The notes beneath the pieces were generated by a model. That model saw only the letters and a program-made list of their open reading frames with translations. It was not told the DNA's origin and did not search any database. The translations under genes and the position numbers were made by a program. 64,000 nt of DNA from Victivallaceae bacterium (lineage in GTDB: Bacteria > Verrucomicrobiota > Lentisphaeria > Victivallales > Victivallaceae): positions 25,450-89,449 of the forward strand of contig JAZMZK010000018.1 of the NCBI GenBank assembly GCA_045585955.1, in the 5' to 3' direction. Below, piece by piece: positions 25,139 through 49,816 of this stretch. Within the stretch, counting starts at the first letter, position 1; every line of letters starts with the position of its first letter.

Positions 25139-25182
25139 CAAATTTTATTTGAGGCAAAAAATGGATCGGTAAAGCTGGATTT

Positions 25183-25212: not shown

Positions 25213-25302
25213 TGTCAACAAAAAACGAACCAAACCCGGAGGGTGGTTCGACCCCGAAGGGGAGCCTGAGCATTTCTGCAAAGCAGAAAGCGGAAGGCAA
25301 TA

Positions 25303-25327
25303 CCAGGTGCCGGAGCCATTTTTTGCC
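25303..25327 (+). repeat. Direct repeat copy 2 (partial tRNA-Asn 3' end), att-like
   Basis: It is identical to 25113-25138 apart from the T-run length. It is followed by a ttttgcc/ggcaaaa hairpin like the one after the intact tRNA. Confidence 0.85.
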
Positions 25328-26099: not shown

Positions 26100-26168
26100 T
26101 CAATTACCTCTTTCAATTTAGATTACGGTTGAAATTTTTCGAGAACAAAGATTTCTCGTTGTATAAAA

Positions 26169-26459: not shown

Positions 26460-26472
26460 CTTATCTCCTTAA

Positions 26473-27696: not shown

Positions 27697-27714
27697 ATTC
27701 GTTGTCTTTCTCCG

Positions 27715-34856: not shown

Positions 34857-34953
34857 ACCGGAAATCCTTTCCGGCGCAAGCTTGTGCGCCCATTATGGGT
34901 ATGCCGGTGCTGAATGCACCATCTTAAAATTGTAACAAAAATGATATTCATTT

Positions 34954-35032
34954 GTCTTTCCTACGCCGGCATTACCCGTTTCAGGTTCGATGGGTTTGAT
35001 CTCAGCCGTTGTTACCTCAACAACAGCACCCC
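34954..35032 (-). promoter_or_regulatory. TPP (THI-box) riboswitch
   Basis: The minus strand reads GGGGUGCUGUUGUUGAGGUAACAACGGCUGAGAUCAAACCCAUCGAACCUGAAACGGGUAAUGCCGGCGUAGGAAAGAC. This contains the conserved CUGAGA and ACCUGA...GGGUAAUGCC..GCGUAGG elements, ~95 nt upstream of thi4. Confidence 0.9.
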
Positions 35033-35160
35033 AAGGTTACATATCTTCTAATGTAACACCATTTGCAAAAAAAATCAAATATAAAAATACATTTATGTTT
35101 GATTTTTATATCGGCAAATGTTATTTTAATGGCGATGCAAACACAAAAAAAGGATTTTTT

Positions 35161-35808
35161 ATGAGGTTCCAAGCCGCTATTTTTGATTTGGACGGCACAT
35201 TGCTGGACAGTATGAAAATATGGAGCAATCTTTGCCGGGAATTTTTATTGCGCCACAATATTGACGAAGCGCTTGATCTTGACGGCAAGCTTGGAGTTAT
35301 TTCCATGCACAATGCTCTTGAGTATATTATAAACGAATTTTCCTTGAATATAACTCTGGAAAAAGCTTATGCAGAAACCTGGCAGATCGTCGAAAATTTT
35401 TATAAAACCCAAGCCAGCCCCAAACCGGGAATAAAAAAAATCCTGGATCATTTGCAGAAAAATAATATTCCATGCGGAATAATCACTGCAACCGAATCAG
35501 GATTGGTTGTTCCGGCATTGGAGCGTACCGGATTGAGCGGATATTTCAAAGCAATTTTCAGCTGCTCGGAAATGCAGACCTCCAAACGGACAGCGGATAT
35601 ATTTTTCAAGATGTCAGATATACTGCATACCTCCCCCGACAACACCATTGTTTTTGAAGATGCACTCTATGCAGCCAATACGGCAGCCCAAGCCGGATAC
35701 GCCGTCGCCGCTGTTTACGACCCCAGCGAAAAAAATCCGGCTCAACTGCAAAAAACAGCTGACTGGTATTTTCAGAGTTGGGAAGATTTTCCGCTTGACC
35801 AACTCTGA
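35161..35808 (+). CDS. HAD-superfamily phosphatase (subfamily IA-like)
   Basis: The start was set at the ATG at 35161 (MRFQAAIFDLDGTLLDS, motif I DxDGT). A later GIITAT and FEDALYAANTA fit motifs II-IV. Confidence 0.85.
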   Translation: MRFQAAIFDLDGTLLDSMKIWSNLCREFLLRHNIDEALDLDGKLGVISMHNALEYIINEFSLNITLEKAYAETWQIVENFYKTQASPKPGIKKILDHLQKNNIPCGIITATESGLVVPALERTGLSGYFKAIFSCSEMQTSKRTADIFFKMSDILHTSPDNTIVFEDALYAANTAAQAGYAVAAVYDPSEKNPAQLQKTADWYFQSWEDFPLDQL

Positions 35809-35816
35809 ACACATTT

Positions 35817-36818
35817 TCAGCAAATTCTCGGCAGCAGTTCTCCGGTGGGCTGGGGCAATATGGTTTTGCCGCCAAAGGGCTGTTCGATGGTAACTTTGCC
35901 CACATTCTCCGTTACTTCGCCAATAATGGAAGCATTGCTGCTGTACGGCATAGCTTGCAGAACTTTTACGATTTCTCCGGCAACAGTCTGCGGAGCAAAG
36001 ATGACCAATCTGCCTTCGCACGCCAGATACAAGGGGTCAAGCCCCAGCATACCGCACACTCCTTTTACCGGATCAGCTACGGGTATATCGGCAGCTTTGA
36101 TATTTATACCGATTTGGCTCTGATCGCAAATTTCGTACAATACTGTGCCCACGCCGCCCCGGGTTGCATCACGGATCACATGGATATCTTTGCTGACACT
36201 CAAAATCGCTTCCACGGTTTTGCCCAGCGGTGCGCAATCGCTTGTTACATCAGCATCAATGCCGAACTCGTCACGCTCCAGCAAAATGGTGCAGCCGTGC
36301 CGCCCCACATCGCCGGAAACGATCACTGCATCCCCAACTTGAGCAATGGCTCCGGAGGTGCGGACTCCGGGCAGCAGTTCCCCTACCCCGGCAGTGGTGA
36401 TAAAGACTTTATCCACTTGCCCTTTGCCCACGACTTTGGTATCACCGGCAACGATTTTGACACCCGCTTCGGCGGCAGTTTTTGCCATAGCGGCGGCGAT
36501 TTCCTCCAAGTCGGCGACCGGGAACCCTTCCTCAATAATAAATGCACAGGTTATATATTTGGGGATCGCCCCCATACATGCTATATCGTTGACCGTACCG
36601 CAAATACTCAATTTGCCGATGTTGCCGCCGGCAAAACGCCACGGCGAAACTACAAAGCCATCAGTAGACATGGCGATCCGGTCAGCCTTTACCGGCAGAA
36701 CAGCCGCATCATCGGGGGTAAAAAGATCGTTGGCAAAATGTTTTTTGAATATCGAACCGATAAGTTCAGAGGTCTGCCGACCGCCGGAACCGTGAGCTAA
36801 TGTAATAAATTTTTCCAT
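35817..36818 (-). CDS. hypE: Hydrogenase maturation carbamoyl dehydratase HypE
   Basis: PurM-like fold with N-terminal LAHGSGG. The diagnostic C-terminal PRIC motif ends the protein. Confidence 0.93.
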   Translation of the reverse strand: MEKFITLAHGSGGRQTSELIGSIFKKHFANDLFTPDDAAVLPVKADRIAMSTDGFVVSPWRFAGGNIGKLSICGTVNDIACMGAIPKYITCAFIIEEGFPVADLEEIAAAMAKTAAEAGVKIVAGDTKVVGKGQVDKVFITTAGVGELLPGVRTSGAIAQVGDAVIVSGDVGRHGCTILLERDEFGIDADVTSDCAPLGKTVEAILSVSKDIHVIRDATRGGVGTVLYEICDQSQIGINIKAADIPVADPVKGVCGMLGLDPLYLACEGRLVIFAPQTVAGEIVKVLQAMPYSSNASIIGEVTENVGKVTIEQPFGGKTILPQPTGELLPRIC

Positions 36819-36831
36819 AATAACACCTGAT

Positions 36832-37866
36832 TTATTGACCGTATTGGTAAAAAGCCGAACAAGCTCCTTCGCCGGAAACCATGCACGCCCCCACCGGATT
36901 CATGGGCGTACAGACTTTGCCGAAGAGCGGGCAGTCGCATGGTTTGCAAATCCCTTTCAAGACTTCGCCGCAGCGGCATCCGGGGTTGCATTTGCCGTCA
37001 TCGGGAGTTAAACCAAACTTGATTACGGCATCAAATCCGCTCCATTGGCTTTTGAGTTTCATACCCGAACCTTTGATTTCGCCCAGACCGCGCCAGACGC
37101 AATCGCAAGGCTCCATCATGCTGTTGACCAGCTTTTGTGCCGCCGGATTGCCCCCGGCTTTGACTACTGAAGTATAAGCGTTATCGCAAAAAGGTTCGCC
37201 GCTTTGTGCGTATTCTACGATCATACCCAATGCTTTTATCACTGCTTCGGCAGTAAATCCGGCAACTACCCCGGATACGCCGTAATCGTTTTTGAGTTCT
37301 TCACAAAGTTTGGTGCCGATAATGGCGTGAACATGCCCCGGATAAAGAAACGCATCAGCCGAACCTTGCAGAGCCTTATATGCCTGAGGCATGGTTTTGT
37401 TGGCGGTCAGGAGAGAAAAGTTTTTTATCCCCAATGCCGCCGCCCGCTTTACAGCTATGCAAGCAGATGGGGTGGTGGTTTCAAACCCCACCGCCAGAAA
37501 AACCACCTCTTTATCCGGATTACTTGCCGCAAAGTCCACCGCATCCAATGGCGAATAAACCGTTTTGAGTTCAGCCCCCAAACTTCGGGCCTGTGCCAAG
37601 CTCATTTCGGAACCGGGCACCCGGATCAGGTCGCCAAAGGTGGCGATCACTGCATGGTGCTTGAGCGCCAGAGTTACGGCACTGTCGATGTACCCGGGGG
37701 GAGTAACGCAAACCGGACAGCCGGGCCCGGAGATAAGCTCAATATTTTTGCTCAAAAGCGACCGGATCCCCAAGCGGAAAATCTCGTGAGTGTGAGTTCC
37801 GCAAACCTCCATTATCCGCAAAGGTCTGCCGGAATAATTGCTTAATAATGATTGGTAATCACTCAT
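36832..37866 (-). CDS. hypD: Hydrogenase maturation Fe-S protein HypD
   Basis: MEVCGTHTHEI and GPGCPVCVTP motifs are present. The ATG at 37866 lies 4 nt after the hypC stop. Confidence 0.93.
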   Translation of the reverse strand: MSDYQSLLSNYSGRPLRIMEVCGTHTHEIFRLGIRSLLSKNIELISGPGCPVCVTPPGYIDSAVTLALKHHAVIATFGDLIRVPGSEMSLAQARSLGAELKTVYSPLDAVDFAASNPDKEVVFLAVGFETTTPSACIAVKRAAALGIKNFSLLTANKTMPQAYKALQGSADAFLYPGHVHAIIGTKLCEELKNDYGVSGVVAGFTAEAVIKALGMIVEYAQSGEPFCDNAYTSVVKAGGNPAAQKLVNSMMEPCDCVWRGLGEIKGSGMKLKSQWSGFDAVIKFGLTPDDGKCNPGCRCGEVLKGICKPCDCPLFGKVCTPMNPVGACMVSGEGACSAFYQYGQ

Positions 37867-37870
37867 AAAC

Positions 37871-38050
37871 TTACTCCTCATTTTCCGGAGTTATTTTAGC
37901 TATCGCCACCCCGGCGTGAACCATCACATAGTCGCCGGGCTCCAAATCGTCCAGCAGTTCAGCGGAAACCTCCCGGCGGGCACCGGAAGCATCGACTAAA
38001 GCGGTATCTTTATTGACCGCCACAACCTTGGCAGAAAGTCCAACACACAT
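37871..38050 (-). CDS. hypC: Hydrogenase maturation chaperone HypC (not in the ORF track, 59 aa)
   Basis: Hand translation gives MCVGLSAKVVAVNKDTALVDASGARREVSAELLDDLEPGDYVMVHAGVAIAKITPENEE. It has the essential N-terminal Met-Cys and the GDYVLVHAG-like motif, and sits between hypF and hypD. Confidence 0.88.
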   Translation of the reverse strand: MCVGLSAKVVAVNKDTALVDASGARREVSAELLDDLEPGDYVMVHAGVAIAKITPENEE

Positions 38051-38067
38051 AAGATAAATCCTTTATA

Positions 38068-40362
38068 TTAAAACTGTTTTATATTATAAACGCCATAAAG
38101 TGCCTGCCCCAGCGATATACCGCCATCATTGGCGGGTACCAGCTTGTGGAGCAAAACCCTGAAACCATTCTTCGAGAGCTTTTTCCGGCAAAGATCCAGC
38201 AAAAGCATATTCTGGAAACTCCCGCCGGATAATGCACACACATTCAAATTGCTTGCCCGTCTTGCCTGCAAACAGCTTGCCAAGATCATATCCGCCAAAA
38301 GTTTGTGGAAGCTGTATGCCAGAAACCCCACATCCACGCCTTTTATACGCTCATTTGCCAACCAGGTAAAAAGTTCATCAGTCGCCATAATGCCTTTTTC
38401 TGCAAAAGAGCTATCAATACCTGGCAGATCATCTTTGTTTGCTTCATACCACCTTTGGGCGGCAAACTCCAAGCTCATAGCTGCATCGCCTTCAAAGGTG
38501 GAATTGCGGGCAATGCCCAACAGGGCACTTACGCCGTCAAACAATCTGCCGACACTGGTACTGACAACGGTATTGATGTTGTTTTTTATCATTGCCGAAA
38601 GCATTTTGTATTCCAGAGAAGAACACAAATCAAGTTTTTCAGCATACTTGCCCGCTTGCTCCGGCAGATACTTTTCCAACAAACCCACCGCGATCCGCCA
38701 CCCTTCCCGGCTGGCAGCATCGCCCCCGGCTTGCGGGAAAGGTGCTATATGGGTAAAACGCTCAAACTTATCCGGAGAAGCAAGCAATATTTCGCCTCCC
38801 CAAATGGTGCTGTCGGTGCCGTAGCCGGTACCATCCATAGCAACCCCGATAACCGGATCAAGGTAGTTATTTTCTGCCATACAGCTTAATATATGGGCAT
38901 AGTGGTGCTGGATTTTCACCACATTACCGCTTAATTCTCCGGCGATGCGGGTGGTGTGATACCCCGGGTGCATATCCGAAACAGTCCGATCCACCTTGCA
39001 CTCCAACAACTCCGAAAAGAGCTTGACTGAATCCTTCAAAGCCTCGTTACTGCGAACATCTTCCATATCCCCGATATGGGGGGCTATGTAAAAAAGTTGA
39101 TCTTTAGCGATACAGAAAGCGTTTTTCAGCTCGCCGCCGATCGCCAGCACTTCGCCTTTAAGCGGCAGATCCACCTTGACCGGCAGCGGAGCAAAACCCC
39201 GGGATCGGCGGATCATGTAAGGTTCATTGTTATAAAGCCGCATCACTGAATCATCGGCACGCAAGCGGATATCCCGGTTGTGAGAAAGTATAATATCGCA
39301 AAAACTGCTGATCTCCTGCAAAGCATCCTCTTCGGTTCGGCAGATGGGGGCACCGGATACATTGCCGCTGGTCATAACTAATGTATCAGTAAAATCCACA
39401 CCATCGGGGTAATCAAAAAGCAGCATCTGCAACGGTGCATAAGGCAGCATCACTCCCAGCGTGGGATTGCCGGGAGCCAGAATATCCGGCAAGGTGCAAT
39501 CGCTTTTTTTATCCAGAAGCAAGATCGGTTTTTCGCAGCCATCCAGCCATGAAAGAGCTTTTTCGCTTAAAATACACTCTTTTCTTACCGTATCAACATT
39601 GTTCATCATCACCGCAAAAGGCTTGCGGGGGCGGTGTTTGAGTTCCCGCAAACGGTTCACGGCTTCAATATTCCTTGCATCGCAAGCCAGATGAAACCCG
39701 CCGATGCCTTTGATGGCAGCTATCCTGCCTTGCATAAGGAGCTTCCGGCACTCGGTAATGGCTGCACCTCCCCGCAAATTTGAACCCAATATATAAACTT
39801 CCGGGCCGCAATCATTGCAGCAAACCGGCTGGGCATCATAACGGCGGCTGGCAAGGGAGTAATACTCTTTTTCGCACGCCTGACACATGGGAAAATGTTT
39901 CATGCTCGTCCGTTCCCGGTCGTAAGGCAACGCCTCCAGAATGGTCAAACGGGGACCGCAAGCCGTGCAGTTTATAAAACTGTGCAAATACCGCCGGTCA
40001 GCGGGGTCAAACAGCTCTTTGCGGCACTGGTGACAAGTTGCAATATCAGGCGGTATAAATATTGCCCCTTTATCCGCTTGGCTTTCCAATATGGAAAAGT
40101 CTTCAAAAACTTCAAGTTCAACAACTTGTTCTTTTATATCAACAATATTTGCCCGCTCCGGAGCTTCAGCAGCCAAAGCGTTGCGGAAATTCTGCAAATC
40201 CTCATCACTGCCTTGAGCCACTACCTCCACAAAGCTGCCGCGGTTGATAACTTTGCCGGTAATGCGGTGAGCCAACGCAATGCGGTGGACAAAGGGGCGG
40301 AACCCCACGCCCTGCACCACGCCGTAAATATTGTATATAACGCTTTTGACCAAATTTGCCAT
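38068..40362 (-). CDS. hypF: Carbamoyltransferase HypF
   Basis: It has the acylphosphatase motif VQGVGFRPFV, two CxxC-x18-CxxC zinc fingers (CHQCRKE...CTACGPR; CQACEKE...CNDCGPE), and YrdC-like and Kae1-like domains. The ATG directly abuts the TGA of the upstream gene. Confidence 0.95.
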   Translation of the reverse strand: MANLVKSVIYNIYGVVQGVGFRPFVHRIALAHRITGKVINRGSFVEVVAQGSDEDLQNFRNALAAEAPERANIVDIKEQVVELEVFEDFSILESQADKGAIFIPPDIATCHQCRKELFDPADRRYLHSFINCTACGPRLTILEALPYDRERTSMKHFPMCQACEKEYYSLASRRYDAQPVCCNDCGPEVYILGSNLRGGAAITECRKLLMQGRIAAIKGIGGFHLACDARNIEAVNRLRELKHRPRKPFAVMMNNVDTVRKECILSEKALSWLDGCEKPILLLDKKSDCTLPDILAPGNPTLGVMLPYAPLQMLLFDYPDGVDFTDTLVMTSGNVSGAPICRTEEDALQEISSFCDIILSHNRDIRLRADDSVMRLYNNEPYMIRRSRGFAPLPVKVDLPLKGEVLAIGGELKNAFCIAKDQLFYIAPHIGDMEDVRSNEALKDSVKLFSELLECKVDRTVSDMHPGYHTTRIAGELSGNVVKIQHHYAHILSCMAENNYLDPVIGVAMDGTGYGTDSTIWGGEILLASPDKFERFTHIAPFPQAGGDAASREGWRIAVGLLEKYLPEQAGKYAEKLDLCSSLEYKMLSAMIKNNINTVVSTSVGRLFDGVSALLGIARNSTFEGDAAMSLEFAAQRWYEANKDDLPGIDSSFAEKGIMATDELFTWLANERIKGVDVGFLAYSFHKLLADMILASCLQARRASNLNVCALSGGSFQNMLLLDLCRKKLSKNGFRVLLHKLVPANDGGISLGQALYGVYNIKQF

Positions 40363-41394
40363 TCAAAGCTCCTCAAGCAGTTTTCCGGAAACCGCAAAAT
40401 GGGGGAAATCCACCCAGCTGCCCTTATATATATTATGCACGATCCGCTCAAATGCGCTGTCAGCAAAGACCACATCAAAGGTGTTTGTTTCAAAAACTTT
40501 GCGGAAATCTTCTTCGCTGTTGAACTTGAAATCAGCGTCTTTATTTACTGCATTAAAGAAACTGCCGCAAACAGCTTCCGCATCGGGGAAAGTGCTTGAT
40601 ATGCGTTTTTTCAGCTCCAACGCCGCAAAGTTCTGGTGGACTATCAACACTCTTTTGCCGGATAGATCGCTAATTTCAAGCTCATCGGCAATGCCGGGAG
40701 CTGCGATTTCGTATGGTGTGTTGAAAGATTTTTTCAAATATTCCGCAGCTTTCAATCCGGCGGGCGATACCACAATATTTTTTTCTACTTCCGAAGCCTT
40801 TGCCACATCGTCTAAAGTTCCATTCATACCGTAAATACGCACATCGCCTGTCAAATGTTTTCTGATGACCTTTGCCGCCTCAAGGGTGCTGTAATCCAGC
40901 GGTGTGGCACCCAGCACCCCAATCGCTCCGGTTTTGACCGGACGCGCTTCCACTGCAAAGGTTTTGAATAGCGTTGTATAGGCTTGCGAGGCACCAACTT
41001 CATAATACATTGTACCGCTTGCCTCCAACGCCATAACCGGTATATCCAACGCCTTTTGGCACATTCTCTGCAAGGCAGGAAAATCGGTAGCGATCACTGC
41101 CGGTACCGGCGAACCGATTACCGCCATAAATTTGCGGCTGCTGATTTTTGCCGCGGCAATAAGTTTATCTGCCAACAGCCGATCCCGCCCCAGAATGGCA
41201 TCCATATCCCGCAAACCGGCACTGAACAAAGCACTTTTGCGGGTAAACCAGCGGGGTTCGTCAAAGCCGCAAATATTACCGGTGCAGCCCCCGGCATCGC
41301 AAATCACGATCACGCCATCAAGCTCGAACAACACCGAAACCGCCCCCGCCAGATCGGGTGCAAAGGGCGAAAGATATTTCAAAAGACTTTTCAT
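40363..41394 (-). CDS. Nitrogenase component-1-type (Oxidored_nitro) subunit, beta-like, triad 2
   Basis: 343 aa. It is a paralog of 43420-44580; compare LAGAVSVLFELDGVIVICDAGGCTGNICGFDEPRWF with [36 protein letters not shown]. It has the general NifK/N/BchB-like Rossmann triplet layout. Confidence 0.75.
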   Translation of the reverse strand: MKSLLKYLSPFAPDLAGAVSVLFELDGVIVICDAGGCTGNICGFDEPRWFTRKSALFSAGLRDMDAILGRDRLLADKLIAAAKISSRKFMAVIGSPVPAVIATDFPALQRMCQKALDIPVMALEASGTMYYEVGASQAYTTLFKTFAVEARPVKTGAIGVLGATPLDYSTLEAAKVIRKHLTGDVRIYGMNGTLDDVAKASEVEKNIVVSPAGLKAAEYLKKSFNTPYEIAAPGIADELEISDLSGKRVLIVHQNFAALELKKRISSTFPDAEAVCGSFFNAVNKDADFKFNSEEDFRKVFETNTFDVVFADSAFERIVHNIYKGSWVDFPHFAVSGKLLEEL

Positions 41395-42677
41395 TGCAGC
41401 ACCTCCCCCATAGCAGAAAATAAATCATTGACCGCCTGATAGCCAAACTGCCGCACTTCGGAGTTCCATTTGATCCCCGGCTTGTCGGCGTGATAATACA
41501 TGGCATCCTGCCCGATGGCAAAATCGATTTTTGCCTCTCTCTTATCATAATAAAGCATGGTGGGCGACAAGTTGCTGTAAACTTTGGTTGCAGGCGAAAT
41601 GGCAGCGAGCTTCTTCAAGTAAACAAAGTTGCTTTCGCCGATGGTTCCGTAAATTTCATTTACTTGCAAGCCCATTTCCGCCAGCGAGAGAGCCAGCTCA
41701 AAACTGTCGGCATTGAGCCATTCACCCACGGCAAAACGCAAATTACCGAACTTGTCTTTGAAGTTTTTGATTATTTGGGCACTTTCCGAATAAAACTTTT
41801 CATCGTCAAATGCAACATTCAACGCTTGAGCCAACGCCATATATTGAGCGTGGATCTTATCTATCCGGTGAAGATTATTAAGCTCAATAAAGGGTATCTC
41901 CAAATTTTTGCTCATATCCTGCGCAGCATATCTCGCTTCGCTGTTGAGCACCAGATTAAAGTTGGCTTCTGCCATAAGTTCGTACTCTTCAAAGCTCTGC
42001 ATACGGGATAACTCCCGGATGTTTTTTATTCCCACACTCTGCAAAAGTTTATATAGTTCGCACTCATCCGCCAGCGGCGAAAAGTAGCCCAACAAATTGC
42101 AGGCATTGCTCTTTTTGGGGCGTTTTTTCAATAAACTGTAAACGCTCCGACGCACCGATGCCATAGGCGGCAGCCGCCCTTCCCGGGTCAAAGCATACAT
42201 GTAACAGGGCACGACCGGCACCCCGGCAGCTTCTGAACACTTGCGGCAGACCCGATCCATATCCGTACCCAGCAAAGCATCCACACATGTTATGCAAATC
42301 ATCACCGCTTTGGGCGGTACCGGTCGGCTGGAACAAATCTCTTTGACCGCTTCGGGTATGCGGTTCAAGTGGCGGCCGGTAACAATATCAGTATCGTCCT
42401 GCAAAAGATAGTAGAATCGGTCGGCATACTTCCGGTCGCGGCCCAATGCAGCGGTATTTCTGCCGCAGCACCCCGGCGACACTAAAAGCATCACACTTTC
42501 CGGAACCGCCAGCCCCGCCCGCTTGACCCCGAAACCTTGAGCCCCGGGGGAGTTAAAAGCCAGAGTTGCCGGAGAACTGTAAACCAGATTTTTGCCGGAT
42601 AACAATTCTGACGGGATATTGTTTTTTCCCAATTCAGCCAATTCTTTGGCAGTTATATAAAAAGCTGTATTACTCAT
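41391..42677 (-). CDS. Nitrogenase component-1-type (Oxidored_nitro) subunit, alpha-like, triad 2
   Basis: 428 aa with Cys motifs [10 protein letters not shown] and [13 protein letters not shown]. It is a paralog of 44577-45911. Both junctions are ATGA overlaps. Confidence 0.75.
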
Positions 42678-43432
42678 GATTCACCTTCGTCGATAAGCAT
42701 TTGAGCCAATGCCAGAAATTTTTGGCTCACCGGCAGATCTTTATTGCCTTCGATCACTGTTTTGCCCATATCTTCATAATGGATTATATCGTTGGAGCGG
42801 GGTATATCGGCAACGATCTCCAAGTTATTATCGTCGGCAAACTTGCGAACTTTTTCTTCCTCATTTTCCACAGCACGGCGATTCATTACTATACCCCGCA
42901 CAGCGGCATAGTTGCGGTCTGCAAAGTTTTTTACAGCATTGTTGATGTTGTTGGCAGCATAAAGTGCCATTTTTTCGCCGGAAGTAACGATCAATACTTT
43001 CTCGGCATATCCCTCCCGGATGGGGGCGGCAAATCCGCCGCAAACCACATCGCCCAGCACATCGTACAAAACAAAGTCGGGCTGATATGTTTCAAAAAGT
43101 TCCAGATCTTCCAGCAAGCTGAAAGTGGTAATAATGCCCCTGCCCGCACAGCCTAGCCCCGGAGTGGGTCCACCGGTTTCGATGCATAAAATGTTGCCGA
43201 AACCAACTTTACTGATCTCTCCGATCGTTTCCGGCTCCCGGTCGAAATCTCTTATAAAATTCATTACCGGCGTCAAAGGTTCGCCCCTCAGCAGATTTAC
43301 TGTGGAGTCCGCTTTGGGGTCGCAGCCGATCTGGATGACCCGTTTGCCCAGCGTTGCCAAGGCTGCTGCCAGATTGCTGGTAACGGTGGATTTGCCGATA
43401 CCGCCCTTGCCGTAAATTGCTATTTTCTGCAT
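42674..43432 (-). CDS. NifH/BchL/CfbC-family ATPase Fe protein-like, copy 2
   Basis: It has Walker [11 protein letters not shown] and switch I CDPKADST. The [4Fe-4S] ligand contexts GLGCAGRGI and [12 protein letters not shown] are both present. The ATG at 43432 was chosen over the TTG at 43447. Confidence 0.9.
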
Positions 43433-44580
43433 ATCAAACTCTTCCAATCTATATATTTATCAATCAAATTCAATCTTGCTTTATGATAGCACCGCCCGGA
43501 AAAGGCTTCGTGGGGCAACGCTATATATTTTTTGCCGGAGGGGACAATGGGTAAATACATATTGTCGCAAACGATCAATTCGGCGCTGGCAAATTCTCCG
43601 GCAATAAGTTTTTCCTGACCGACAGCTTTATCGGTGCCGGTCAACAACTTTTTATCCCCTGCCAAAGGGTCAATGATGCGGCAGCTTACACCAAGTTCGC
43701 TCTCCAACGCCTTGGCAAGAGTGCCGGAATACACGCTTTCGCCAATGATCAGGCATTGAGCATTTTCGCCGCTCTCCCGGCACGCTGACCAGTAAGAATT
43801 TACTTTACTCTGCCGGACACTCGCTAATTCTTCAAGCAAATCATTTGCCGCCGATTTACCAACCGGCACGCCGCAAACAAAGGGTATATTGTATTTTTTA
43901 TACATGTATTGAGCCAGCGGCAAACCGCTGTTGGCGATCACCAGATTTACTTCGGCATTAACTGAATAACGCAACTCCTCAAGTGTATTATTCATCGCCC
44001 AGGAAGCAAGCACTTTGTAATCAAACTTTTGCAAAAACTCTACAATACTTTCCACATTGCCGTTGATGGAGAAATCCAGCGGAGTAGCCCCCAGTATATT
44101 CACACTTTGCGGAATGATCTTTTCAGCTTTTTCCGGCAGAAACCGCTCTGCCAGAAGTTTCCACGCCTTGGCCGCCCCGACATGATAATGCTCCATACCC
44201 GAAGTCGGCACCGCAAAACATGGTATGTTGGTTTGTGCTTCGATTGAGCAAGCAACAGCACGCATATCCGTACCCACCATCAAAGGTATGGGCGAATTGC
44301 ATAATGCTATAAATTCGGGCTGAAGCGTTCCGGCAGAACGCACCACATCCTCAATAAATTTATCATCATTGCCGCAAACCATATCCAGTTCGGTCAATGC
44401 TGATATATAGACCATGCTATCCGAATTGAACCAGCGGGGTTCATCGTGGGTGGCATAAGTGGAGTTGCAGCCGGAGGCATCGTGCACAATGGTCATGCCG
44501 CCCAGCTCAAAAAGTGCTGAACAAACGCCCGCAGTATCTGCCGCATAGCAGGAGATGATTTTTGCGTAATTATTACTCAT
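43420..44580 (-). CDS. Nitrogenase component-1-type (Oxidored_nitro) subunit, beta-like, triad 1
   Basis: 386 aa from the ATG at 44580 (ATGA overlap with the upstream stop). Motifs are [10 protein letters not shown]...DEPRW and [15 protein letters not shown]. Confidence 0.75.
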
Positions 44581-45911
44581 AAACAGCTTTCGCACCCCCA
44601 TCCTTTGAGCTGGATAACTTTTTCCGTATCGCTCAAAGTGTTTTTAGCGTTCACCATAGCCTTGCACATTTGCGTTATGCCGTCAAAACCGTACCAGCCG
44701 CCGCCGGAAACGATATTGACCAAATGCCGACTGCCGGTAAAGCAAGCTGCTTTCTGCCCGATGGCAAGGTATTCATCGCCGGAACCGGGTGTTTTGACCG
44801 CAAACCGCATTGCCGGGTGCAGTGTGGGAGAGATCAATAGTTTGGGGCAATGGCTTTGCAACCACTCAAAGTCCGCTTTTTCTTCCGGAATAACCACATC
44901 GCTGTAAATGCGTTCAACATTAAAGTCATGCTCCAGAAGCAACCTTGCCAGCGAGAGATTCCGCAAAGTTGCCGTATAATCTATGGCTATGGGCATAGAG
45001 CCAATGACCTTGCGGGCTTCAGCCAATGTTCTGCGGGCTTCGCTTTCGGCTTGAGAAAAATCCAATTTTATATTCAATTCTTCGCTTAAAATCCGGTAGT
45101 TTTCTGCGATTTCTTCAAAACTGTAACTTAAAGGCAAATGCAAAAATTTCCGCCGCAGCCGCTGACACAAAAACTCATTGCCCGCTTTTGCCGTGGGGTA
45201 ATAAGATATATTGCAGAAACTTTCACTCATAGATAAATATTCGTCATAATCTTGGCACGCAGCTATATCTTTGACCTTGAAACCATTATTTTTGAGCATA
45301 ATTATCAATTCGCTGGATTCTGCCGTTACCCGGTCGTTGCCGATAATGTTTATGCTTTTATTATCCGCCACAGCGTTTTCACGCAAAGGTGCATAGAGCT
45401 GTTTACGCATAAAGGCATCCGGCGTCAAGCCCGATTTCCGCATAGTGGGGTGCATCAAACATTCCACAAAGTCGATTGCGGGGAAACGCTTTTGCAATTC
45501 ATCGTAAATCGCCCGGGTATCGCACCCGGCAAAAAGCTGTATACAGCTTAAAAAGACCAATACCGCCCGGGGCTTTACACTCATTTCCTCAAGAATAGCA
45601 CTTATGCCTTCAATAGCATTGCTTTCAAGAGTGCCGTCAAATAGATCGCTTTCTTTGACCGTAACAAAACTCATGCGCTCCATGGCGTTCATCTCGGCGG
45701 CAGTCAATATCACACCCCGCAAACAACCTTGAGCACAGACAAATATCTGGTGGGAGCGGGGTATAAGCATCCCGGTATGCACAATGTTCCACATGCCCCG
45801 GGAGGGAGCATTGAACTCCAGCTCCGAAGCAAAAAGCTGGGGAAACTTTGCCGCTTTTACCGGCAGAGCAAAAAATTCAGCATCAACTTTTTTTCCTACA
45901 CTTTTAAGCAT
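44577..45911 (-). CDS. Nitrogenase component-1-type (Oxidored_nitro) subunit, alpha-like, triad 1
   Basis: 444 aa with Cys motifs VCAQGCLRGV and FLSCIQLFAGCD. Its start overlaps the NifH-like copy 1 stop by 8 nt. Confidence 0.75.
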   Translation of the reverse strand: MLKSVGKKVDAEFFALPVKAAKFPQLFASELEFNAPSRGMWNIVHTGMLIPRSHQIFVCAQGCLRGVILTAAEMNAMERMSFVTVKESDLFDGTLESNAIEGISAILEEMSVKPRAVLVFLSCIQLFAGCDTRAIYDELQKRFPAIDFVECLMHPTMRKSGLTPDAFMRKQLYAPLRENAVADNKSINIIGNDRVTAESSELIIMLKNNGFKVKDIAACQDYDEYLSMSESFCNISYYPTAKAGNEFLCQRLRRKFLHLPLSYSFEEIAENYRILSEELNIKLDFSQAESEARRTLAEARKVIGSMPIAIDYTATLRNLSLARLLLEHDFNVERIYSDVVIPEEKADFEWLQSHCPKLLISPTLHPAMRFAVKTPGSGDEYLAIGQKAACFTGSRHLVNIVSGGGWYGFDGITQMCKAMVNAKNTLSDTEKVIQLKGWGCESCL

Positions 45912-46659
45912 TGTTCTGCTCCATGATCTTTTCTGCCAGCGACCGGTAAGCCTTGGCTATATCACTTGCCGGATAAGCACTCAAAAGAGTTTTCTGCATT
46001 TCTTCAGCTTCGGCAACCAAACTGCTGCGGGGAATTATGCCGGTGATCAGACTTTCAAAATCCTCTGCCAGTGCTGCAACCTTATTGGCTTCATCCTTGA
46101 CGACCCGGCAATTCAAGATAAAACCGCCCAGCTCTGCATAGTTGCGGCTCTGGAAATTCTTCAACGCCATGGCGATATTTGCCGCAGCATAAATGGACAT
46201 GTTTTCGCCGGAAGTAATAATGTATACTTTATCAGCGTAACCATTACGCATAGGCATGGCAAAGCCGCCGCAAACCACATCGCCCAGCACATCGTACAAA
46301 ACAACATCGGGCTTAATCGCAGAGTAAGCACCTTTGCTTTCCAGTTTTTCCAGAGCGTTGATGATCCCCCTGCCCGCACAGCCCATGCCGGGAACCGGAC
46401 CACCGGCTTCCACACAAGCGATATTCTTTTCGCCGAACGACACCATATCATGCCACGAAAAATCATCGCCGTATTTGCGGATAAGTTCCAAAACCGGCGT
46501 GGGGCGTCTGCCCCCCAGATGCGACATGGTGGAGTCCGCTTTGGGGTCGCAGCCGATTTGCATAACTTGCAGACCTTTTTCCGCAAGTGCATAAGCTAAA
46601 TTGCTGACAGTAGTGGATTTACCGATACCGCCTTTACCGTAAAAAGCCAATTTCAACAT
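45904..46659 (-). CDS. NifH/BchL/CfbC-family ATPase Fe protein-like, copy 1
   Basis: It has Walker [11 protein letters not shown] and switch I CDPKADST, plus the cluster ligand contexts GMGCAGRGI and [14 protein letters not shown]. Its start overlaps the HydE stop by 7 nt. Confidence 0.9.
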   Translation of the reverse strand: MLKLAFYGKGGIGKSTTVSNLAYALAEKGLQVMQIGCDPKADSTMSHLGGRRPTPVLELIRKYGDDFSWHDMVSFGEKNIACVEAGGPVPGMGCAGRGIINALEKLESKGAYSAIKPDVVLYDVLGDVVCGGFAMPMRNGYADKVYIITSGENMSIYAAANIAMALKNFQSRNYAELGGFILNCRVVKDEANKVAALAEDFESLITGIIPRSSLVAEAEEMQKTLLSAYPASDIAKAYRSLAEKIMEQNNA

Positions 46660-47702
46660 GTTTTTTCACTCCAATCGCCCCGGCTGAACTCAAAAGCATA
46701 GCCGATAGTGTTCAATTCTTCACTTAAAGCTTTGACCGCCTCCGCAACCGGCTTATCTGCCGAAAGCTTGTTGTTGTACAATAGATAATTATTCTGCACA
46801 TCTTTGGGCGTCAAATTGGGCATGATCACATTGGCACCGGCTTGGATGCCCAGCACTCGCCCGCCGGATTTCAGCGAACCCAACGCCGTGGTCGCCGGAA
46901 GCAAGACCTTTTCCAACATGATGCGAGTCAAGCTCAAAAGCATCAAAGTTTGCGCCACACTGCTTGCCGGATAACTGGCAAAGGGGGTATCTTTGTGAGG
47001 GATAAAAGGCCCGATGCCCACCATTTCCGGCTGCAAACCGTGCATAAAAAGCATATCTTTTGCCAGCGTTTGGGGCGTTTGGAACGGGCTCCCGGTCATA
47101 ATGCCGCAACCGGTCTGATAGCCCAAACTTTTCAAATTCTGCAAACACTCCATGCGATTACTTAAACTCATATATTCCGGGTGCATTTTCCGGTAATGCC
47201 CTTCATCAGCCGTTTCGTGCCGCAAAAGATAGCGGTCAGCTCCGGCTTCACGCAAAAGTTTGTATTCAGCCAAGCTCAATTCCCCCAGCGAAAGCGTTAC
47301 CGCACAGCCGGGAAATTCACTTTTCAAACGCCGTACCAATTGGCAAAGCCGGTCAGCACAACAACCCACTTCGCCACTTTGCAGAACAAAAGTCTTGATA
47401 TTATTTTGCCAGCCCGTGCGGCAGCACTCAACGATCAGATCGTCGCTCATATTGTAGCGTTGAACCAAAGTGTTGCTTTTGCGGATGCCGCAATAAAAAC
47501 AATCGTTGCTGCAAACATTGGAAAATTCCACAATGCCCCGGATAAAGACCTTTCTGCCGTAATGTTTTTGAGCGATCGCCTGCGCTTTTTCAGCAGCAAA
47601 GAGCCGATCCGCTTGCGAGTAAGAACTCAAAAGCGTCACCCATTCGGCAAAGCCAAGCTGTTTTTCAGCATCAAGTTTTTCAATCAATCCACGGCAAACC
47701 AT
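46653..47702 (-). CDS. hydE: [FeFe]-hydrogenase maturase HydE-type radical SAM protein
   Basis: The radical SAM motif is EFSNVCSNDCFYCGIR. Blocks TFVLQSGE, AVTLSLGE, EAGADRYLLRHETA, VGIGPFIPHKDTP, LPATTALG and GANVIMPNLTP match Thermotoga HydE as I remember it, nearly block for block. Confidence 0.85.
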   Translation of the reverse strand: MVCRGLIEKLDAEKQLGFAEWVTLLSSYSQADRLFAAEKAQAIAQKHYGRKVFIRGIVEFSNVCSNDCFYCGIRKSNTLVQRYNMSDDLIVECCRTGWQNNIKTFVLQSGEVGCCADRLCQLVRRLKSEFPGCAVTLSLGELSLAEYKLLREAGADRYLLRHETADEGHYRKMHPEYMSLSNRMECLQNLKSLGYQTGCGIMTGSPFQTPQTLAKDMLFMHGLQPEMVGIGPFIPHKDTPFASYPASSVAQTLMLLSLTRIMLEKVLLPATTALGSLKSGGRVLGIQAGANVIMPNLTPKDVQNNYLLYNNKLSADKPVAEAVKALSEELNTIGYAFEFSRGDWSEKTC

Positions 47703-47760
47703 TGTAAAATCTCACAATAAAGAGTTAAAATTGAAAAAAATGAATTTTGAATTGAATGAT

Positions 47761-47849
47761 TTTTCGGAGATGAGATGTGAGCGGTAGTTTTTTCCGGCTA
47801 CTCGTAGAGTAACCGGGAAAAACGCTCCGCTTGCAGATCGCTCCGAAAA
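47761..47849. promoter_or_regulatory. ~90-nt imperfect inverted repeat in the operon leader/promoter region
   Basis: The outer 9-bp arms are perfect (ttttcggag at 47761-47769, ctccgaaaa at 47841-47849). Inner pairings are gagcg/cgctc, ttttt(t)ccgg/ccgg(g)aaaaa and actc-gta-gagt at the apex. Confidence 0.5.
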
Positions 47850-47885
47850 CATTCAAGGCATTTTCATTTTTTTTAATTTTGACTC

Positions 47886-47928
47886 AACAAAAAGACCGTA
47901 TTCCTGACATACAGACAGCAATACGGTC
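47886..47928 (-). terminator. Rho-independent terminator after the TM1266-like gene
   Basis: On the minus strand, gaccgtatt pairs with aatacggtc (9-bp stem, 17-nt loop) and is followed by tttttgttg. Confidence 0.7.
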
Positions 47929-48019
47929 AAAATAACGACTTATTATTATGCTTCTGCCTCAAAGTTCCCTGCCGGGAAGTTTTCAGCGTCAGGATAAATA
48001 TTCAATATACAATTTTATT

Positions 48020-48268
48020 TCAAACTGCCGAACAGACGGCTTTGGCAGTCACGCCCTCAAGTCTGCCCAGTTTACCGGCTATGGCGTTGATCTTATCGGT
48101 TGGAGCATCCAGCACGATATTGATTATGCTGATCTTGCGTTCCCGATAAGGCAAACCCATTCTGCCGATGATATATTCGCCGAACTCGTGCAGTATGGCA
48201 TTGACCGCTGCGGCGGACTCCATATTTTCAACGATTATTGCCACTACGGCAACACGGTTTTCAGCCAT
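48020..48268 (-). CDS. TM1266-type ACT-like protein (putative iron-only hydrogenase system regulator family)
   Basis: 82 aa from the ATG at 48268 (GAGGTG RBS). RVAVVAIIVENMESAAAVNAILHEFGEYIIGRMGLPYRERKISIINIVLDAPTDKINAIAGKLGRLEGVTAKAV parallels the Thermotoga TM1266 sequence pattern as I recall it. Confidence 0.7.
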   Translation of the reverse strand: MAENRVAVVAIIVENMESAAAVNAILHEFGEYIIGRMGLPYRERKISIINIVLDAPTDKINAIAGKLGRLEGVTAKAVCSAV

Positions 48269-48331
48269 ACAACACCTCGCAAATATACCACTTTGACTAT
48301 TATAGCACAACAAACTGTTTATGCAAACAGT

Positions 48332-49816
48332 TTACTTCAAAAAATCCAACACAAATTCTGCCATATCGGATTTTTCAATGCAATTCTTGTGCCGCACTTC
48401 GCAACCCTTCAAATTGGCAAGCGGTGCCGGGATCGGGGTATTGGAAAGTTTGGCAAGCATTTCCAACTGGGCAAAGCCGTCAGCAGGAATAGCTTCGGCA
48501 GTCAAAGCCGGCAATACCGATGCAGCAAACTTATAGGGCGAAGCAGTGGAAGCCACCACCGTCAATGTATTGTCGCCGGTAGCTTTGCGGTACTGTTCAA
48601 GCACATTTGCCGCAACCGCAGTGTGGGTATCGGCAAGATAGTTGTACTCTTTGAAAAGTTTGCCGATAGTTTCTTCGGTACCCTTTTCGTCGCAATATCC
48701 GCCGAAAAATTCGCTCTGCAATTTTGCCAGCACATCTTTGGGCAGCTCGTAACGGCCTTTTTCCGCCAGCTCTTTCATAAGTTTGGCAGTAAGTTCAGCA
48801 TCGTTGCCGGCAGCGTGGAAGATCATGCGTTCCAAATTGCTGGAAATCAATATATCCATGGAAGGACTGCTGGTGGTGTAAAACTCCCGGTTGCGGTCAT
48901 AGACCCCGGTTTCCAGAAAATCGGTCAAAACTTTGTTGCGGTTGGAGGCACAAATAAGTTTGTCGATAGGTACACCCATTTGCTTGGCATAGTAAGCAGC
49001 CAATATATCGCCGAAGTTGCCGGTGGGCACAGCTACATTGAACTTTTCGCCCGCTTTCAACGCACCTTTCTTCAAAAGATCGCAAGCTGCCGACACATAA
49101 TAGACGATCTGGGGAACCAGACGGCCGAAGTTGATGCTGTTGGCAGAAGAAAATTCCATATTCTTCTTATCCAGAGCTTCCCGGATGGCATCGTCGGTAA
49201 AGATTTTTTTGACTCCGCTCTGGGCATCGTCAAAGTTGCCTTCGATACCGCAAACCGAAACATTGTCGCCAACTTGGGTGATCATCTGCAATTTCTGCAT
49301 ATCCGACACCCCGTTTTCCGGGAAGAACACCACGATCCTGGTGTTGGGTACATCGGCAAACCCCGCCAATGCCGCCTTGCCGGTATCGCCGGAAGTGGCT
49401 ACCAATATAACGATGGTTCTGCCGGGAGCAGTCTTATTGGCAGCTTTGACCAGCAAAAAGGGCAGCAGCTGCAATGCCATATCTTTAAAAGCACAAGTAG
49501 GCCCGTGCCAGAGTTCCAGCATTTCAGTACCGGCAGTTACTTCGGCAAGGGGAGCGGGGTCGTTGTTATCAAAAGTATTGGTGTAAGCACCTTTTACGCA
49601 ATAATCCAGCTCTTCATCTGTATAGTCAGTCAAATAGAGTTTGAGCACTTCTTTGGCACGGCCAATATAATCCATATCAGCAAGTGCCATAAGTTTTTCG
49701 TAAGATAACTGCGGGAAACTGCAAGGCACAAAAAGCCCACCATCAGCAGCAATACCCCGGGTAATAGCGGCAGCAGAACTGACACTCTGCACACTTCTGG
49801 TACTGGTAAACAACAT
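48332..49816 (-). CDS. thrC: Threonine synthase (long form)
   Basis: It starts MLFTSTRS, has GGLFVP, and has the PLP-lysine context GPTCAFKDMALQ. Length is 494 aa. Confidence 0.92.
   Translation of the reverse strand: MLFTSTRSVQSVSSAAAITRGIAADGGLFVPCSFPQLSYEKLMALADMDYIGRAKEVLKLYLTDYTDEELDYCVKGAYTNTFDNNDPAPLAEVTAGTEMLELWHGPTCAFKDMALQLLPFLLVKAANKTAPGRTIVILVATSGDTGKAALAGFADVPNTRIVVFFPENGVSDMQKLQMITQVGDNVSVCGIEGNFDDAQSGVKKIFTDDAIREALDKKNMEFSSANSINFGRLVPQIVYYVSAACDLLKKGALKAGEKFNVAVPTGNFGDILAAYYAKQMGVPIDKLICASNRNKVLTDFLETGVYDRNREFYTTSSPSMDILISSNLERMIFHAAGNDAELTAKLMKELAEKGRYELPKDVLAKLQSEFFGGYCDEKGTEETIGKLFKEYNYLADTHTAVAANVLEQYRKATGDNTLTVVASTASPYKFAASVLPALTAEAIPADGFAQLEMLAKLSNTPIPAPLANLKGCEVRHKNCIEKSDMAEFVLDFLK

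Follow-up and report, generated by a model that had tools for sequence, protein, structure and literature searches.

The stretch of DNA analysed here, termed the window throughout, comprises 64,000 nucleotides (nt) of a Victivallaceae bacterium (GenBank assembly GCA_045585955.1, contig JAZMZK010000018.1, positions 25,450 to 89,449). On its minus strand it carries a cluster of twelve genes, which joins a TM1266-family putative regulator and the [FeFe]-hydrogenase maturase HydE to two triads of nitrogenase-like proteins (H1, A1, B1 and H2, A2, B2) and to the [NiFe]-hydrogenase maturases HypF, HypC, HypD and HypE. The pattern of conservation identifies this cluster as a functional unit with an invariant core made up of the two triads plus HypFCDE, while TM1266 is nearly always, HydE usually and HydF occasionally part of it. 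The reading which we favour, tentatively and as a serious contender only, is that the locus may represent a self-contained, horizontally mobile, HydG-independent assembly line for an organometallic iron-cyanide/carbonyl (Fe-CN/CO) cofactor on ATP-driven nitrogenase-like scaffolds.

A first-pass annotation, made from the letters of the window, had described eleven tightly coupled genes at this position. The listing of open reading frames (ORFs) showed eleven ORFs in succession between 35817 and 47702, all on the minus strand, and both the coordinates and the junctions were confirmed on the sequence. HydE (46653-47702, 349 amino acids (aa)), a radical S-adenosylmethionine (SAM) maturase of the H-cluster type, reached 472 bits on the model TIGR03956, for which the curated cut-off is 254.6. 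It is followed by the NifH-like ATPase/reductase H1 (45904-46659, 251 aa, 283 bits on PF00142), by the alpha-like protein A1 (44577-45911, 444 aa, 57 bits on PF00148), which represents a very divergent nitrogenase component-1 fold, and by the beta-like protein B1 (43420-44580, 386 aa, 104 bits on PF00148). The second triad consists of H2 (42674-43432, 252 aa, 291 bits on PF00142), A2 (41391-42677, 428 aa, 107 bits on PF00148) and B2 (40363-41394, 343 aa, 61.5 bits on PF00148). With a gathering cut-off of 28.6 bits for PF00148, all four alpha- and beta-like proteins were found above the threshold. The Hyp part starts with the carbamoyltransferase HypF (38068-40362, 764 aa, TIGR00143, 753 bits versus a cut-off of 466), followed by a short form of HypC (37871-38050, 59 aa, TIGR00074, 56.6 versus 48 bits), HypD (36832-37866, 344 aa, TIGR00075, 397 versus 193 bits) and HypE (35817-36818, 333 aa, TIGR02124, 408 versus 252 bits). 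All family assignments proposed earlier (HydE, two NifH-like, four Oxidored_nitro proteins and HypF/C/D/E) were thereby supported by profile searches. The junctions are extremely tight. The hydE and H1 genes overlap by 7 nt (ATGTTGA), H1 and A1 by 8 nt, B1 and H2 by 13 nt, and ATGA overlaps were found for A1/B1 (44577-80), H2/A2 (42674-77) and A2/B2 (41391-94). The B2 stop codon directly abuts the hypF start codon (TGAATG). Gaps of 17, 4 and 13 nt separate hypF, hypC, hypD and hypE, of which the 4-nt gap requires that hypD starts with the ATG at 37866, preceded by a GAGGAG Shine-Dalgarno sequence. Upstream of the TM1266 gene lies thrC, and downstream of the cluster a gene for a haloacid dehalogenase (HAD) hydrolase converges on it. 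Among the large ORFs of the window no hydrogenase or nitrogenase structural genes were found, so the corresponding earlier claim was upheld for all large ORFs scanned. The closest relatives of the cluster genes, with 93-99% identity per gene, come from metagenome-assembled genomes (MAGs) of Victivallaceae/Lentisphaeria from animal guts.

In order to analyse the conservation of the cluster, one genome per GTDB species was scanned with a profile of A1. An A1 relative was found encoded in 346 species-level genomes, and the best 80 of these 346 loci were surveyed up to about 1 kb beyond hypE (individual loci carry L numbers below). They belong to Lentisphaerota (35), Bacillota (37), Synergistota (2) and Spirochaetota (1), with 5 further loci from unlabelled rumen bins. 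The Bacillota include the cultured hosts Clostridium aromativorans, C. lapidicellarium, Hominimerdicola aceti and Anaerostipes sp. MSJ-23 and, furthermore, Guopingia tenuis, Ruminococcus, Blautia and Megamonas, the latter as MAG only. Arrangements were counted by tblastn with the eleven window proteins in the 59 loci offering at least 8.9 kb downstream of A1. The complete colinear order H2-A2-B2-HypF-C-D-E after H1-A1-B1 was observed in 47 of these 59 informative loci, while 3 ended at a contig edge, 1 was rearranged (Megamonas) and 8 lacked the second module. All 21 contigs ending earlier were colinear up to their end. HydE was adjacent in 55 of 69 loci. Median intergenic distances ranged from -8 to +15 nt at every junction, with 1 nt for B2/hypF (52 loci). 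Finding the same arrangement in dozens of species from four phyla is more than expected by chance, and the colinear order kept in Lentisphaerota, Bacillota, Spirochaetota and Synergistota bears out the linkage across distant taxa for which the earlier annotation had proposed a neighbourhood survey. Comparing the window with Clostridium aromativorans, identities of 53, 65, 55, 44, 75, 61, 50, 55, 66, 63 and 65% were obtained for the eleven genes. Such a uniform cross-phylum identity (44-75%) fits the spread of the block by horizontal transfer. Of all cluster genes, H2 showed the strongest conservation, with 72-99% identity across phyla. The eight loci restricted to the first module combine HydE-H1-A1-B1 with an ATP-binding cassette (ABC) transporter of the iron-chelate type, HydF and TM1266.

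A search of 1.84 billion cluster representatives yielded 802 A1 relatives, 224 of them with an E-value of 1e-30 or lower. In all six informative remote loci, where A1 shows only 35-41% identity, hyp genes were found beside nitrogenase-like genes in other orders or on another strand: HypC-D-E-TM1266-H1-A1-B1 (L085), B2-HypF-C-D-E-H1-A1-B1-HydF (L088), B2-HypFCDE-H1-A1-B1 (L092), HypE-A1 (L090), H2-A2-B2-HypF-C-D at a distance of 4 kb from A1-B1 and on the other strand (L091), and ferredoxin-H2-(A2B2 fusion)-HypF-C-D-E-TM1266-A1-B1-HydF-HydE-hydrogenase (L086). The hydrogenase of L086 belongs to group B of the [FeFe] enzymes (TIGR04105, 614 bits, TSCCPAW motif), and its gene string reads as what would be a complete operon closed by this hydrogenase gene. 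The A2B2 fusion protein reached only 26 bits on the CfbD model TIGR03282. Directly behind the hydrogenase gene a large serine recombinase and phage-like genes (PDDEXK, DUF2800) were observed at positions 16586-21368 of L086, so at this site the cluster borders an integrated mobile element. The outgroup, at 27-31% identity, consists of NifH/alpha/beta sets with an iron-chelate-type ABC transporter and without hyp or hyd genes; examples are L087 and plasmid pTS1 of Treponema saccharophilum, which was the sole match of a plasmid search. Order conservation over phyla and linkage kept despite shuffling of the gene order agree with the earlier proposal that the genes act as one functional unit.

These data also bear on the view that the locus is a mere island of maturases, in which hypFCDE would serve an unlinked [NiFe]-hydrogenase and hydE/TM1266 an unlinked [FeFe]-hydrogenase, while the triads would do other work, for example the reduction of a metal chelate or tetrapyrrole in the manner of CfbCD or the dark-operative protochlorophyllide oxidoreductase (DPOR), all being grouped by shared anaerobic or metal regulation. 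Distant A1/B1 relatives do stand beside ABC transporters of the iron-chelate/B12 type without any hyp or hyd gene, the eight module-1-only loci possess such a transporter, and the [4Fe-4S]-type ligands of A1 and A2 resemble those of tetrapyrrole-reducing members in a background devoid of an iron-molybdenum (FeMo) cofactor ligand. Moreover, a survey of Clostridium acetogens described hypCDEF without hypA/B in five species, all of which own a group 1a [NiFe]-hydrogenase. The translational coupling of B2 and hypF, however, is kept in four phyla, the linkage survives at least four gene orders at 35-41% identity, and HypA/B, a maturation protease or a large subunit were detected at none of the loci. 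In the same acetogen survey C. carboxidivorans was found to possess, besides the hypCDE genes adjoining its [NiFe]-hydrogenase, another hypCDE set located elsewhere. Dorea longicatena is a reported carrier of the cluster (Dos Santos et al., 2012). The hydrogenases listed for it were [FeFe] enzymes of groups A2 and B only; a "NifH" hit was also given, and no [NiFe] enzyme (Welsh et al., 2025). This argument joins two reports and rests on them, not on the D. longicatena sequence; KEGG and hyp terms were not found in the accessible part of the supplements of Welsh et al., and when homologues were searched for starting from an A1 of Lachnospiraceae, no protein assigned by name to Dorea or Coprococcus was among the matches. 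The shuffled but kept linkage weakens the island view, the ABC transporter outgroup keeps it alive, and overall we regard it as improbable.

The maturases encoded in the cluster look functional, as far as motifs and profile scores can tell. HydE aligned over residues 38-326 with the structures of Thermotoga maritima HydE (256 bits), and its CX3CX2C motif (C64, C68, C71) was invariant. In HypF all domains were present (acylphosphatase, two zf-HYPF, YrdC, Kae1-like). HypC matched positions 1-56 of the 80 positions of its profile; the short form was also found in relatives (59-70 aa), and Cys2 and His45 were invariant in 53 sequences. HypD aligned with Thermococcus kodakarensis HypD (270 bits) including CGTHxH, GPGCPVC, GFETT and the C-terminal cysteine cluster, and HypE ends with LLPRIC, containing the PRIC motif with the conserved C333. 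All four Hyp proteins scored over the curated cut-offs, with motifs invariant in 49-55 orthologues. HydF (TIGR03918, 573 bits) adjoined the cluster in 19 of 80 loci and was not found in the window. A gene for an aspartate ammonia-lyase-like protein occurred in 3 loci overall, two of the survey and L003. A HydG-sized radical SAM gene was detected neither in the window nor in any flank of the surveyed loci. HypA/B and NifB were not among the recurrent flank families of the 80 loci, whose flank ORFs contained neither the motifs of [NiFe] large subunits (RxCGxC / DPCxxC) nor those of the H-cluster (TSCCP, MPCxxK). Likewise, [NiFe] large or small subunits, HypA/HypB and an endopeptidase were found neither in the 64-kb window nor at any related locus. 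The absence of hypA/B, hydG and nifB noticed earlier for this stretch therefore holds across the related loci surveyed. The partners present thus comprise HydE and HydF without HydG, and HypCDEF without HypA/B; a complete [NiFe] maturation system does not seem to be encoded at the locus, judged from the window and the 80 flanks.

A quite different use of the Hyp proteins would be served if the triads were ATP-driven reductases of CO2 (or a formyl group), which provide the carbonyl for HypCD under anoxia, with Fe(CN)2CO then passing to an ordinary, unlinked [NiFe]-hydrogenase. NifH-type proteins are ATP-coupled low-potential electron donors, and A2B2 and H2 are the components most tightly tied to hypF. 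A 2025 review named the CO ligand's source under anaerobic conditions as the main open question and stated that the reduction of CO2 to CO at about -530 mV "would require ATP hydrolysis". Most organisms with [NiFe]-hydrogenases do not have these genes, though, so no general answer would be obtained. No [NiFe] subunit, HypA/B or protease is linked at any locus, and HydE, HydF, TM1266 and the second triad would stay unexplained. We consider this possibility very improbable.

Judged by profiles and motifs, H1/H2 and the A/B sets belong to the nitrogenase-like (NFL) two-component superfamily. H1 and H2 contain the P-loop and switch I and switch II, with a CDPKADST switch in H1, and the positions of the [4Fe-4S] ligands were invariant (C94/C130 in H1, C95/C131 in H2). 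With the NifH and CfbC models both reached about 290-300 bits, which is under every curated cut-off. On the CfbC model NF033200 301 and 287 bits were obtained for H1 and H2 (cut-off 402), on BchL 175-196 bits (345) and on BchX 149-196 bits (331), so that H1 stayed below the equivalog cut-offs of NifH, CfbC, BchL and BchX. The BchB model gave 47 bits (cut-off 490), and the NifD, VnfD and alternative alpha models 28-50 bits (cut-offs 486-823). H1 and H2 share 49% identity, B1 and B2 33%, and A1 and A2 22% (E-value 3e-29, hhalign probability 100%). These three paralogous pairs indicate that the two triads go back to an old duplication. In a sequence search of the PDB, A1 and B2 alone gave no match, the best match of B1 was NifE (54 bits) with NifN also matched, and A2 matched NifE at 40 bits. 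The profile of A1 reached NifE only at an E-value of 0.0014. An AlphaFold2 model of A1 with a predicted local distance difference test score (pLDDT) of 84 retrieved NifK, AnfK, NifEN and MarDK by Foldseek at template modelling (TM) scores around 0.6 and 9-17% identity. Natural fusion proteins H1-A1, A1-B1 and A2-B2 (the last in L086) were observed, which imply physical complexes.

The candidate metal ligands of the alpha- and beta-like proteins were found to be unusual. Invariant positions are C59xxxC63, C123, C219 and C440 in A1, and C70, C71, H103, C128, C131 and C144 in A2, whereas B1 carries the motif H33-DASGC38NSTYATH45DEPRW and B2 the motif C32-DAGGC37TGNIC42GFDEPRW. The cluster ligand C124 of NifE aligned with A1 C123 and A2 C131. 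In contrast, the position of NifE C250 / NifD C275 is occupied by "YLPTAKA" in A1 and by Asn in A2 (alignment to Azotobacter vinelandii NifE). Since this position is not a cysteine in either protein, neither nitrogenase nor NifEN is encoded. Nitrogenase proper (Nif/Vnf/Anf) was rejected on this absent FeMo cofactor ligand, for which the Cys275 position was the one tested, and on scores far below the cut-offs. A P-cluster site of six cysteines was not found: B1 keeps one invariant cysteine (C38) together with H33 and H45, and A1 has C59/C63 and C123. C32, C37 and C42 of B2 are spaced by 5 residues, unlike C70, C95 and C153 of NifK. The conserved ligand sets would sit at the predicted A/B interface. 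NifB was found neither in the window nor among the recurrent flank families of 80 loci, and the sole radical SAM gene is that of the HydE type (TIGR03956). In five Ruminococcus-type loci (L042, L045, L048, L049, L071) an extra acidic protein of about 133 aa without NCBIfam match is encoded between B2 and hypF, for example at 15534-15935 of L045. With about 300 bits on the NifH model, the H1 and H2 genes would pass for nifH in surveys based on marker genes. As members of the "pseudo-nifH" class, they are sequences of a kind that inflates estimates of diazotrophs in metagenomes of gut and rumen, and estimates of nitrogen fixation in those of the gut (Mise et al., 2021).

From gene content, catalytic motifs, conservation, fusions and the absent nitrogenase ligands we infer a route whose transfer steps, electron-transfer roles and acceptor are all proposals. 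HypF and HypE would convert carbamoyl phosphate into enzyme-bound thiocyanate, and HypC and HypD would assemble Fe(CN)2(CO). HypC might then pass this unit to a nitrogenase-like scaffold rather than to a [NiFe] large subunit, the likeliest acceptor being A2B2, for its gene abuts hypF. H1 and H2 would feed very low-potential electrons, paid for with ATP, into inter-subunit iron-sulfur clusters of A1B1 and A2B2. Such electrons could enable steps beyond the reach of ordinary ferredoxin, such as carbonyl formation, the reduction of Fe(II) to Fe(I) or cluster fusion. HydE would contribute a radical SAM step from a mononuclear Fe-CO-CN synthon to a di-iron unit as in H-cluster synthesis, joined by HydF where it is encoded nearby, and the TM1266-family ACT protein would regulate the set. 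The product would either be delivered to an [FeFe]-hydrogenase, which we slightly favour, or be kept on A1B1 as the rival destination. The absence of HydG in the presence of TM1266, HydE, HydF and the aspartase-like gene suggests that the Hyp/nitrogenase-like part replaces HydG, and the group B [FeFe]-hydrogenase closing the string of L086 fits a delivery to a hydrogenase. All partners of the full cluster are maturases or regulators, and no substrate-handling gene travels along. That Fe(CN)2(CO) on a nitrogenase-like scaffold is turned into a di-iron (or larger) carbonyl-cyanide cluster via NifH-like ATP-driven reduction and HydE/HydF would be categorically new, and we think it possible but doubtful. 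Of the suggestions made in the first-pass annotation, that of one functional unit is supported, and that of a product shared by the three machineries, an Fe-CN/CO cluster on a nitrogenase-like scaffold, is kept here as a proposal.

We are fully aware of several observations which weigh against this assembly-line reading. The Hyp pathway yields Fe(CN)2(CO), whereas the H-cluster needs synthons of the Fe(CO)2(CN) type, a mismatch in stoichiometry. HydG, HydA, [NiFe] large subunits and HypA/B could be encoded elsewhere in the genomes, and some Clostridium species with hypCDEF and no hypA/B do have a [NiFe]-hydrogenase. The Hyd genes are tied to the cluster less firmly than the Hyp genes, as a neighbouring HydE was missing from 14 of 69 loci and a neighbouring HydF from most. 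In eight loci only HydE-H1-A1-B1 are present, followed by the iron-chelate-type ABC transporter, and the outgroup with such a transporter and without hyp or hyd genes gives a hint of an ancestral function outside CN/CO chemistry. Finally, a hydrogenase gene was observed within the string in just one of about 90 loci.

The main rival holds that the nitrogenase-like proteins are themselves the end users: either A1B1 or A2B2 would constitute a novel reductase driven by ATP, with an Fe-CN/CO cluster provided by HypCDEF and HydE(/HydF), and the other triad would be a NifEN-like scaffold. It corresponds to the first option of the first-pass annotation, an organometallic Fe-CN/CO-containing cluster assembled or reduced on a nitrogenase-like scaffold, and would be separable from the favoured assembly line only by biochemistry. 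In line with it, the triads are ancient paralogues like NifDK and NifEN, each has its own NifH-like partner, and the invariant core consists of the two triads and HypFCDE with hydrogenase genes almost never adjacent. A1 possesses cysteines beyond the need of an interface [4Fe-4S] cluster (C59xxxC63, C219, C440), and up to seven conserved cysteines are found in A2 plus B2. HoxV/HupK offer a precedent for HypC delivery to a non-hydrogenase protein, as they receive Fe(CN)2CO from HypC (2025 review). On the other side, no transporter or downstream enzyme gene accompanies the full cluster, whose partners are maturases and regulators. An ATP-burning catalytic reductase would be costly for fermentative gut anaerobes. 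HydF recurs, and the only role of HydF known to us is the delivery to HydA; the string of L086 is closed by a group B [FeFe]-hydrogenase. Overall, we judge the end-user reading rather unlikely, although by no means negligible.

The regulation of the favoured assembly line may involve its twelfth gene. This co-directional gene (48020-48268, minus strand) had been overlooked in the eleven-gene description. It encodes a TM1266-family ACT-domain protein of 82 aa (TIGR03959, 113 bits versus a cut-off of 60.8), a family named "iron-only hydrogenase system putative regulator" in NCBIfam, and a corresponding coding region was found in 61 of the 66 surveyed loci having upstream room. Between this gene and hydE lies a spacer of 317 nt (47703-48019), which contains a hairpin with U-run on the minus strand (47886-47928; 9-bp outer stem, -19.6 kcal/mol, then TTTTGTTG), resembling a terminator or attenuator. 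The hairpin had been taken for a terminator isolating the unit upstream. It is real, but as the TM1266 gene beyond it belongs to the conserved cluster, it is not the outer boundary and was rejected as such; it is an internal feature, being either an attenuator or the place where a short transcript of the regulator ends. A strong hairpin with U-run was found at the equivalent spot in 8 further distinct loci, mostly of Victivallales, with differing stem sequences, and the near-identical sister MAG L004 also has it; the loci named for this feature are L004, L011, L014, L017, L034, L041, L043 and L046. This recurrence suggests regulated read-through, possibly involving the ACT-domain protein. The loop of the spacer hairpins often contains CAGG. 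Lachnospiraceae have no such spacer, and their TM1266 gene directly adjoins H1. No Rfam family matched the TM1266-hydE spacer. Upstream, a promoter-like site (48299-48327, minus strand; TTTGCA, 17-nt spacer, extended TG, TATAAT) is the probable start of the unit; as a consensus match only, with 10 of 12 positions agreeing, it had the top score within 35500-48500. A -24/-12 element of the sigma-54 type (CGGCACAAGAATTGCA, 48379-48394, minus strand, 1 mismatch) was observed about 110 nt upstream of the TM1266 gene within the end of thrC, and the window also encodes a sigma-54 activator that contains a response-regulator domain (54396-55784). As the window contains 46 consensus matches versus 45 expected by chance, the element may mean nothing and was rejected as evidence. 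In four of the module-1-only loci (L054 7137-8189, L056 5700-6860, L059 6889-8217, L063 6732-8198) an ABC ATPase with a C-terminal TM1266-like domain is encoded upstream of hydE. These ATPase-ACT fusions would tie the putative regulator domain to metal-chelate import.

In the literature, two linked NifHEN-like sets were noted as neighbours of hydrogenase maturation genes in Coprococcus catus and other Firmicutes, D. longicatena included (Dos Santos et al., 2012), and the idea of an association with hydrogenase maturation was repeated later (Garcia et al., 2022). Searching for nitrogenase-like proteins in combination with Hyp, Hyd or TM1266, this passage and this sentence were the only direct mentions found, neither of which named TM1266. 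An article in Chemical Reviews of July 2026 listed the nitrogenase-like groups I-III, MSL, VII, IV-A to F, V and VI, left Hyp and HydE unmentioned, and stated that sulfur and tetrapyrrole metabolism are all that genomic contexts have pointed to; the contexts given there for groups IV and VI are of these two kinds only. Consequently, the earlier designation of the system as undescribed holds insofar as no characterised system of such composition was found in the literature searched, but the association itself had already been noted by Dos Santos et al. (2012). The cluster was thus mentioned in passing in 2012, has stayed essentially uncharacterised and is absent from current accounts of nitrogenase-like proteins.

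Three metallocofactor pathways treated as separate are joined here in one conserved mobile unit of hundreds of gut, rumen and fermenter species, and the hydrogenase-maturase context adds a third genomic context to the two of the 2026 review. If the proposed route is true, it would represent either a tyrosine/HydG-independent path to the H-cluster in gut [FeFe]-hydrogenases or a new class of organometallic nitrogenase-like enzymes, and in both cases the first functional bridge between the cofactor pathways of nitrogenase, [NiFe]- and [FeFe]-hydrogenase. Moreover, the way in which anaerobes obtain the carbonyl ligand, with its long-sought ATP-dependent source, could come to light. Building of the active site without HydG would matter for the H2 cycling in the gut and for the heterologous production of hydrogenases. 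To the four cultured Bacillota hosts given above, Coprococcus catus and D. longicatena can be added by report.

Other features were observed in the remaining window. Downstream of the cluster, a thiamine pyrophosphate (TPP) riboswitch (34941-35043, minus strand, 64.6 bits) precedes a thiamine operon of thi4 (34077-34856), thiE (33412-34080), thiD (32589-33419) and thiC (31300-32604). The riboswitch overlaps the first 54 nt of the HAD ORF on the plus strand (34990-35808), so the true start of this ORF probably lies further downstream. A stretch at 25054-30306 with a low G+C content (36% versus about 46%), adjoining a tRNA gene (25054-25125), encodes an 863-aa fusion of a C5 cytosine methylase and an Eco57I-type methylase (27715-30306), an AAA_23/AAA_15 ATPase (25494-26099) and a 407-aa protein without Pfam match; its content resembles that of an acquired island for restriction or defence. 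A lone gene of the SU10 major capsid protein family (2653-3801, minus strand, PF17236, 161 bits) lies between genes for an RTX-repeat protein (43-2103) and an aconitase-family protein (5092-6378), and may be a prophage remnant or encode a capsid-like compartment protein.

Comparing the cluster with known systems, an architectural likeness was found to NifH/NifEN and NifH/NifDK, where a NifH-type ATPase likewise stands next to a PF00148 alpha/beta pair; NifE was the best sequence or profile match for B1, A2 and A1, and the duplicated triads recall the duality of NifDK and NifEN. Unlike Nif systems, the cluster is devoid of NifB and NifX, its partners are Hyp and Hyd maturases instead of Nif maturases, and B1/B2 carry the novel motif H/C-x4-C-x(4-6)-C/H...DEPRW. 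With CfbCD, DPOR (BchLNB), the chlorophyllide oxidoreductase COR (BchXYZ) and Group VI NflHDK it shares the ATP-dependent two-component architecture, the lack of FeMo cofactor ligands and of NifB, and a reduced set of interface cysteines. Identity with CfbCD was ruled out by the CfbC scores below the cut-off and by the alpha/beta heteromers, which differ from the CfbD homodimer. DPOR and COR were ruled out by the BchL, BchX and BchB scores and by the absence of genes for chlorophyll or tetrapyrrole biosynthesis from the window. Methylthio-alkane and isethionate reductases (NFL groups IV-C and IV-F) were rejected as well, as no NifB-like MarB/IsrB was found and the MarD/MarK structures (9d9u, 9fmg) matched only at E-values of 0.004-0.48; among the surveyed loci no linked gene for sulfur assimilation was found. 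Uncharacterised NifH/alpha/beta sets accompanied by iron-chelate-type ABC transporters were described for clostridia and Methanocorpusculum (Dos Santos et al., 2012). These sets form the nearest A1/B1 outgroup, with a transporter similar to that of the eight HydE-H1-A1-B1 loci, but differ from the full cluster by lacking HypFCDE, HydE, HydF, TM1266 and the second triad. The likeness to the Hyp pathway of [NiFe]-hydrogenase lies in HypF/C/D/E passing their cut-offs with catalytic motifs kept, and HoxV/HupK provide the precedent for delivery by HypC to an intermediate scaffold; in contrast to this pathway, hypF is translationally coupled to a nitrogenase-like beta gene and no hydrogenase subunits are linked. 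The HydEFG maturation finally is resembled by HydE and TM1266, both above their cut-offs, with HydF and the aspartase-like gene joining in other taxa. The gene order in the operon of T. maritima is TM1266, HydG, HydE. HydG, the usual source of the Fe-CO-CN synthon, is not part of the cluster described here, and HypFCDE and the two nitrogenase-like triads stand in its place.

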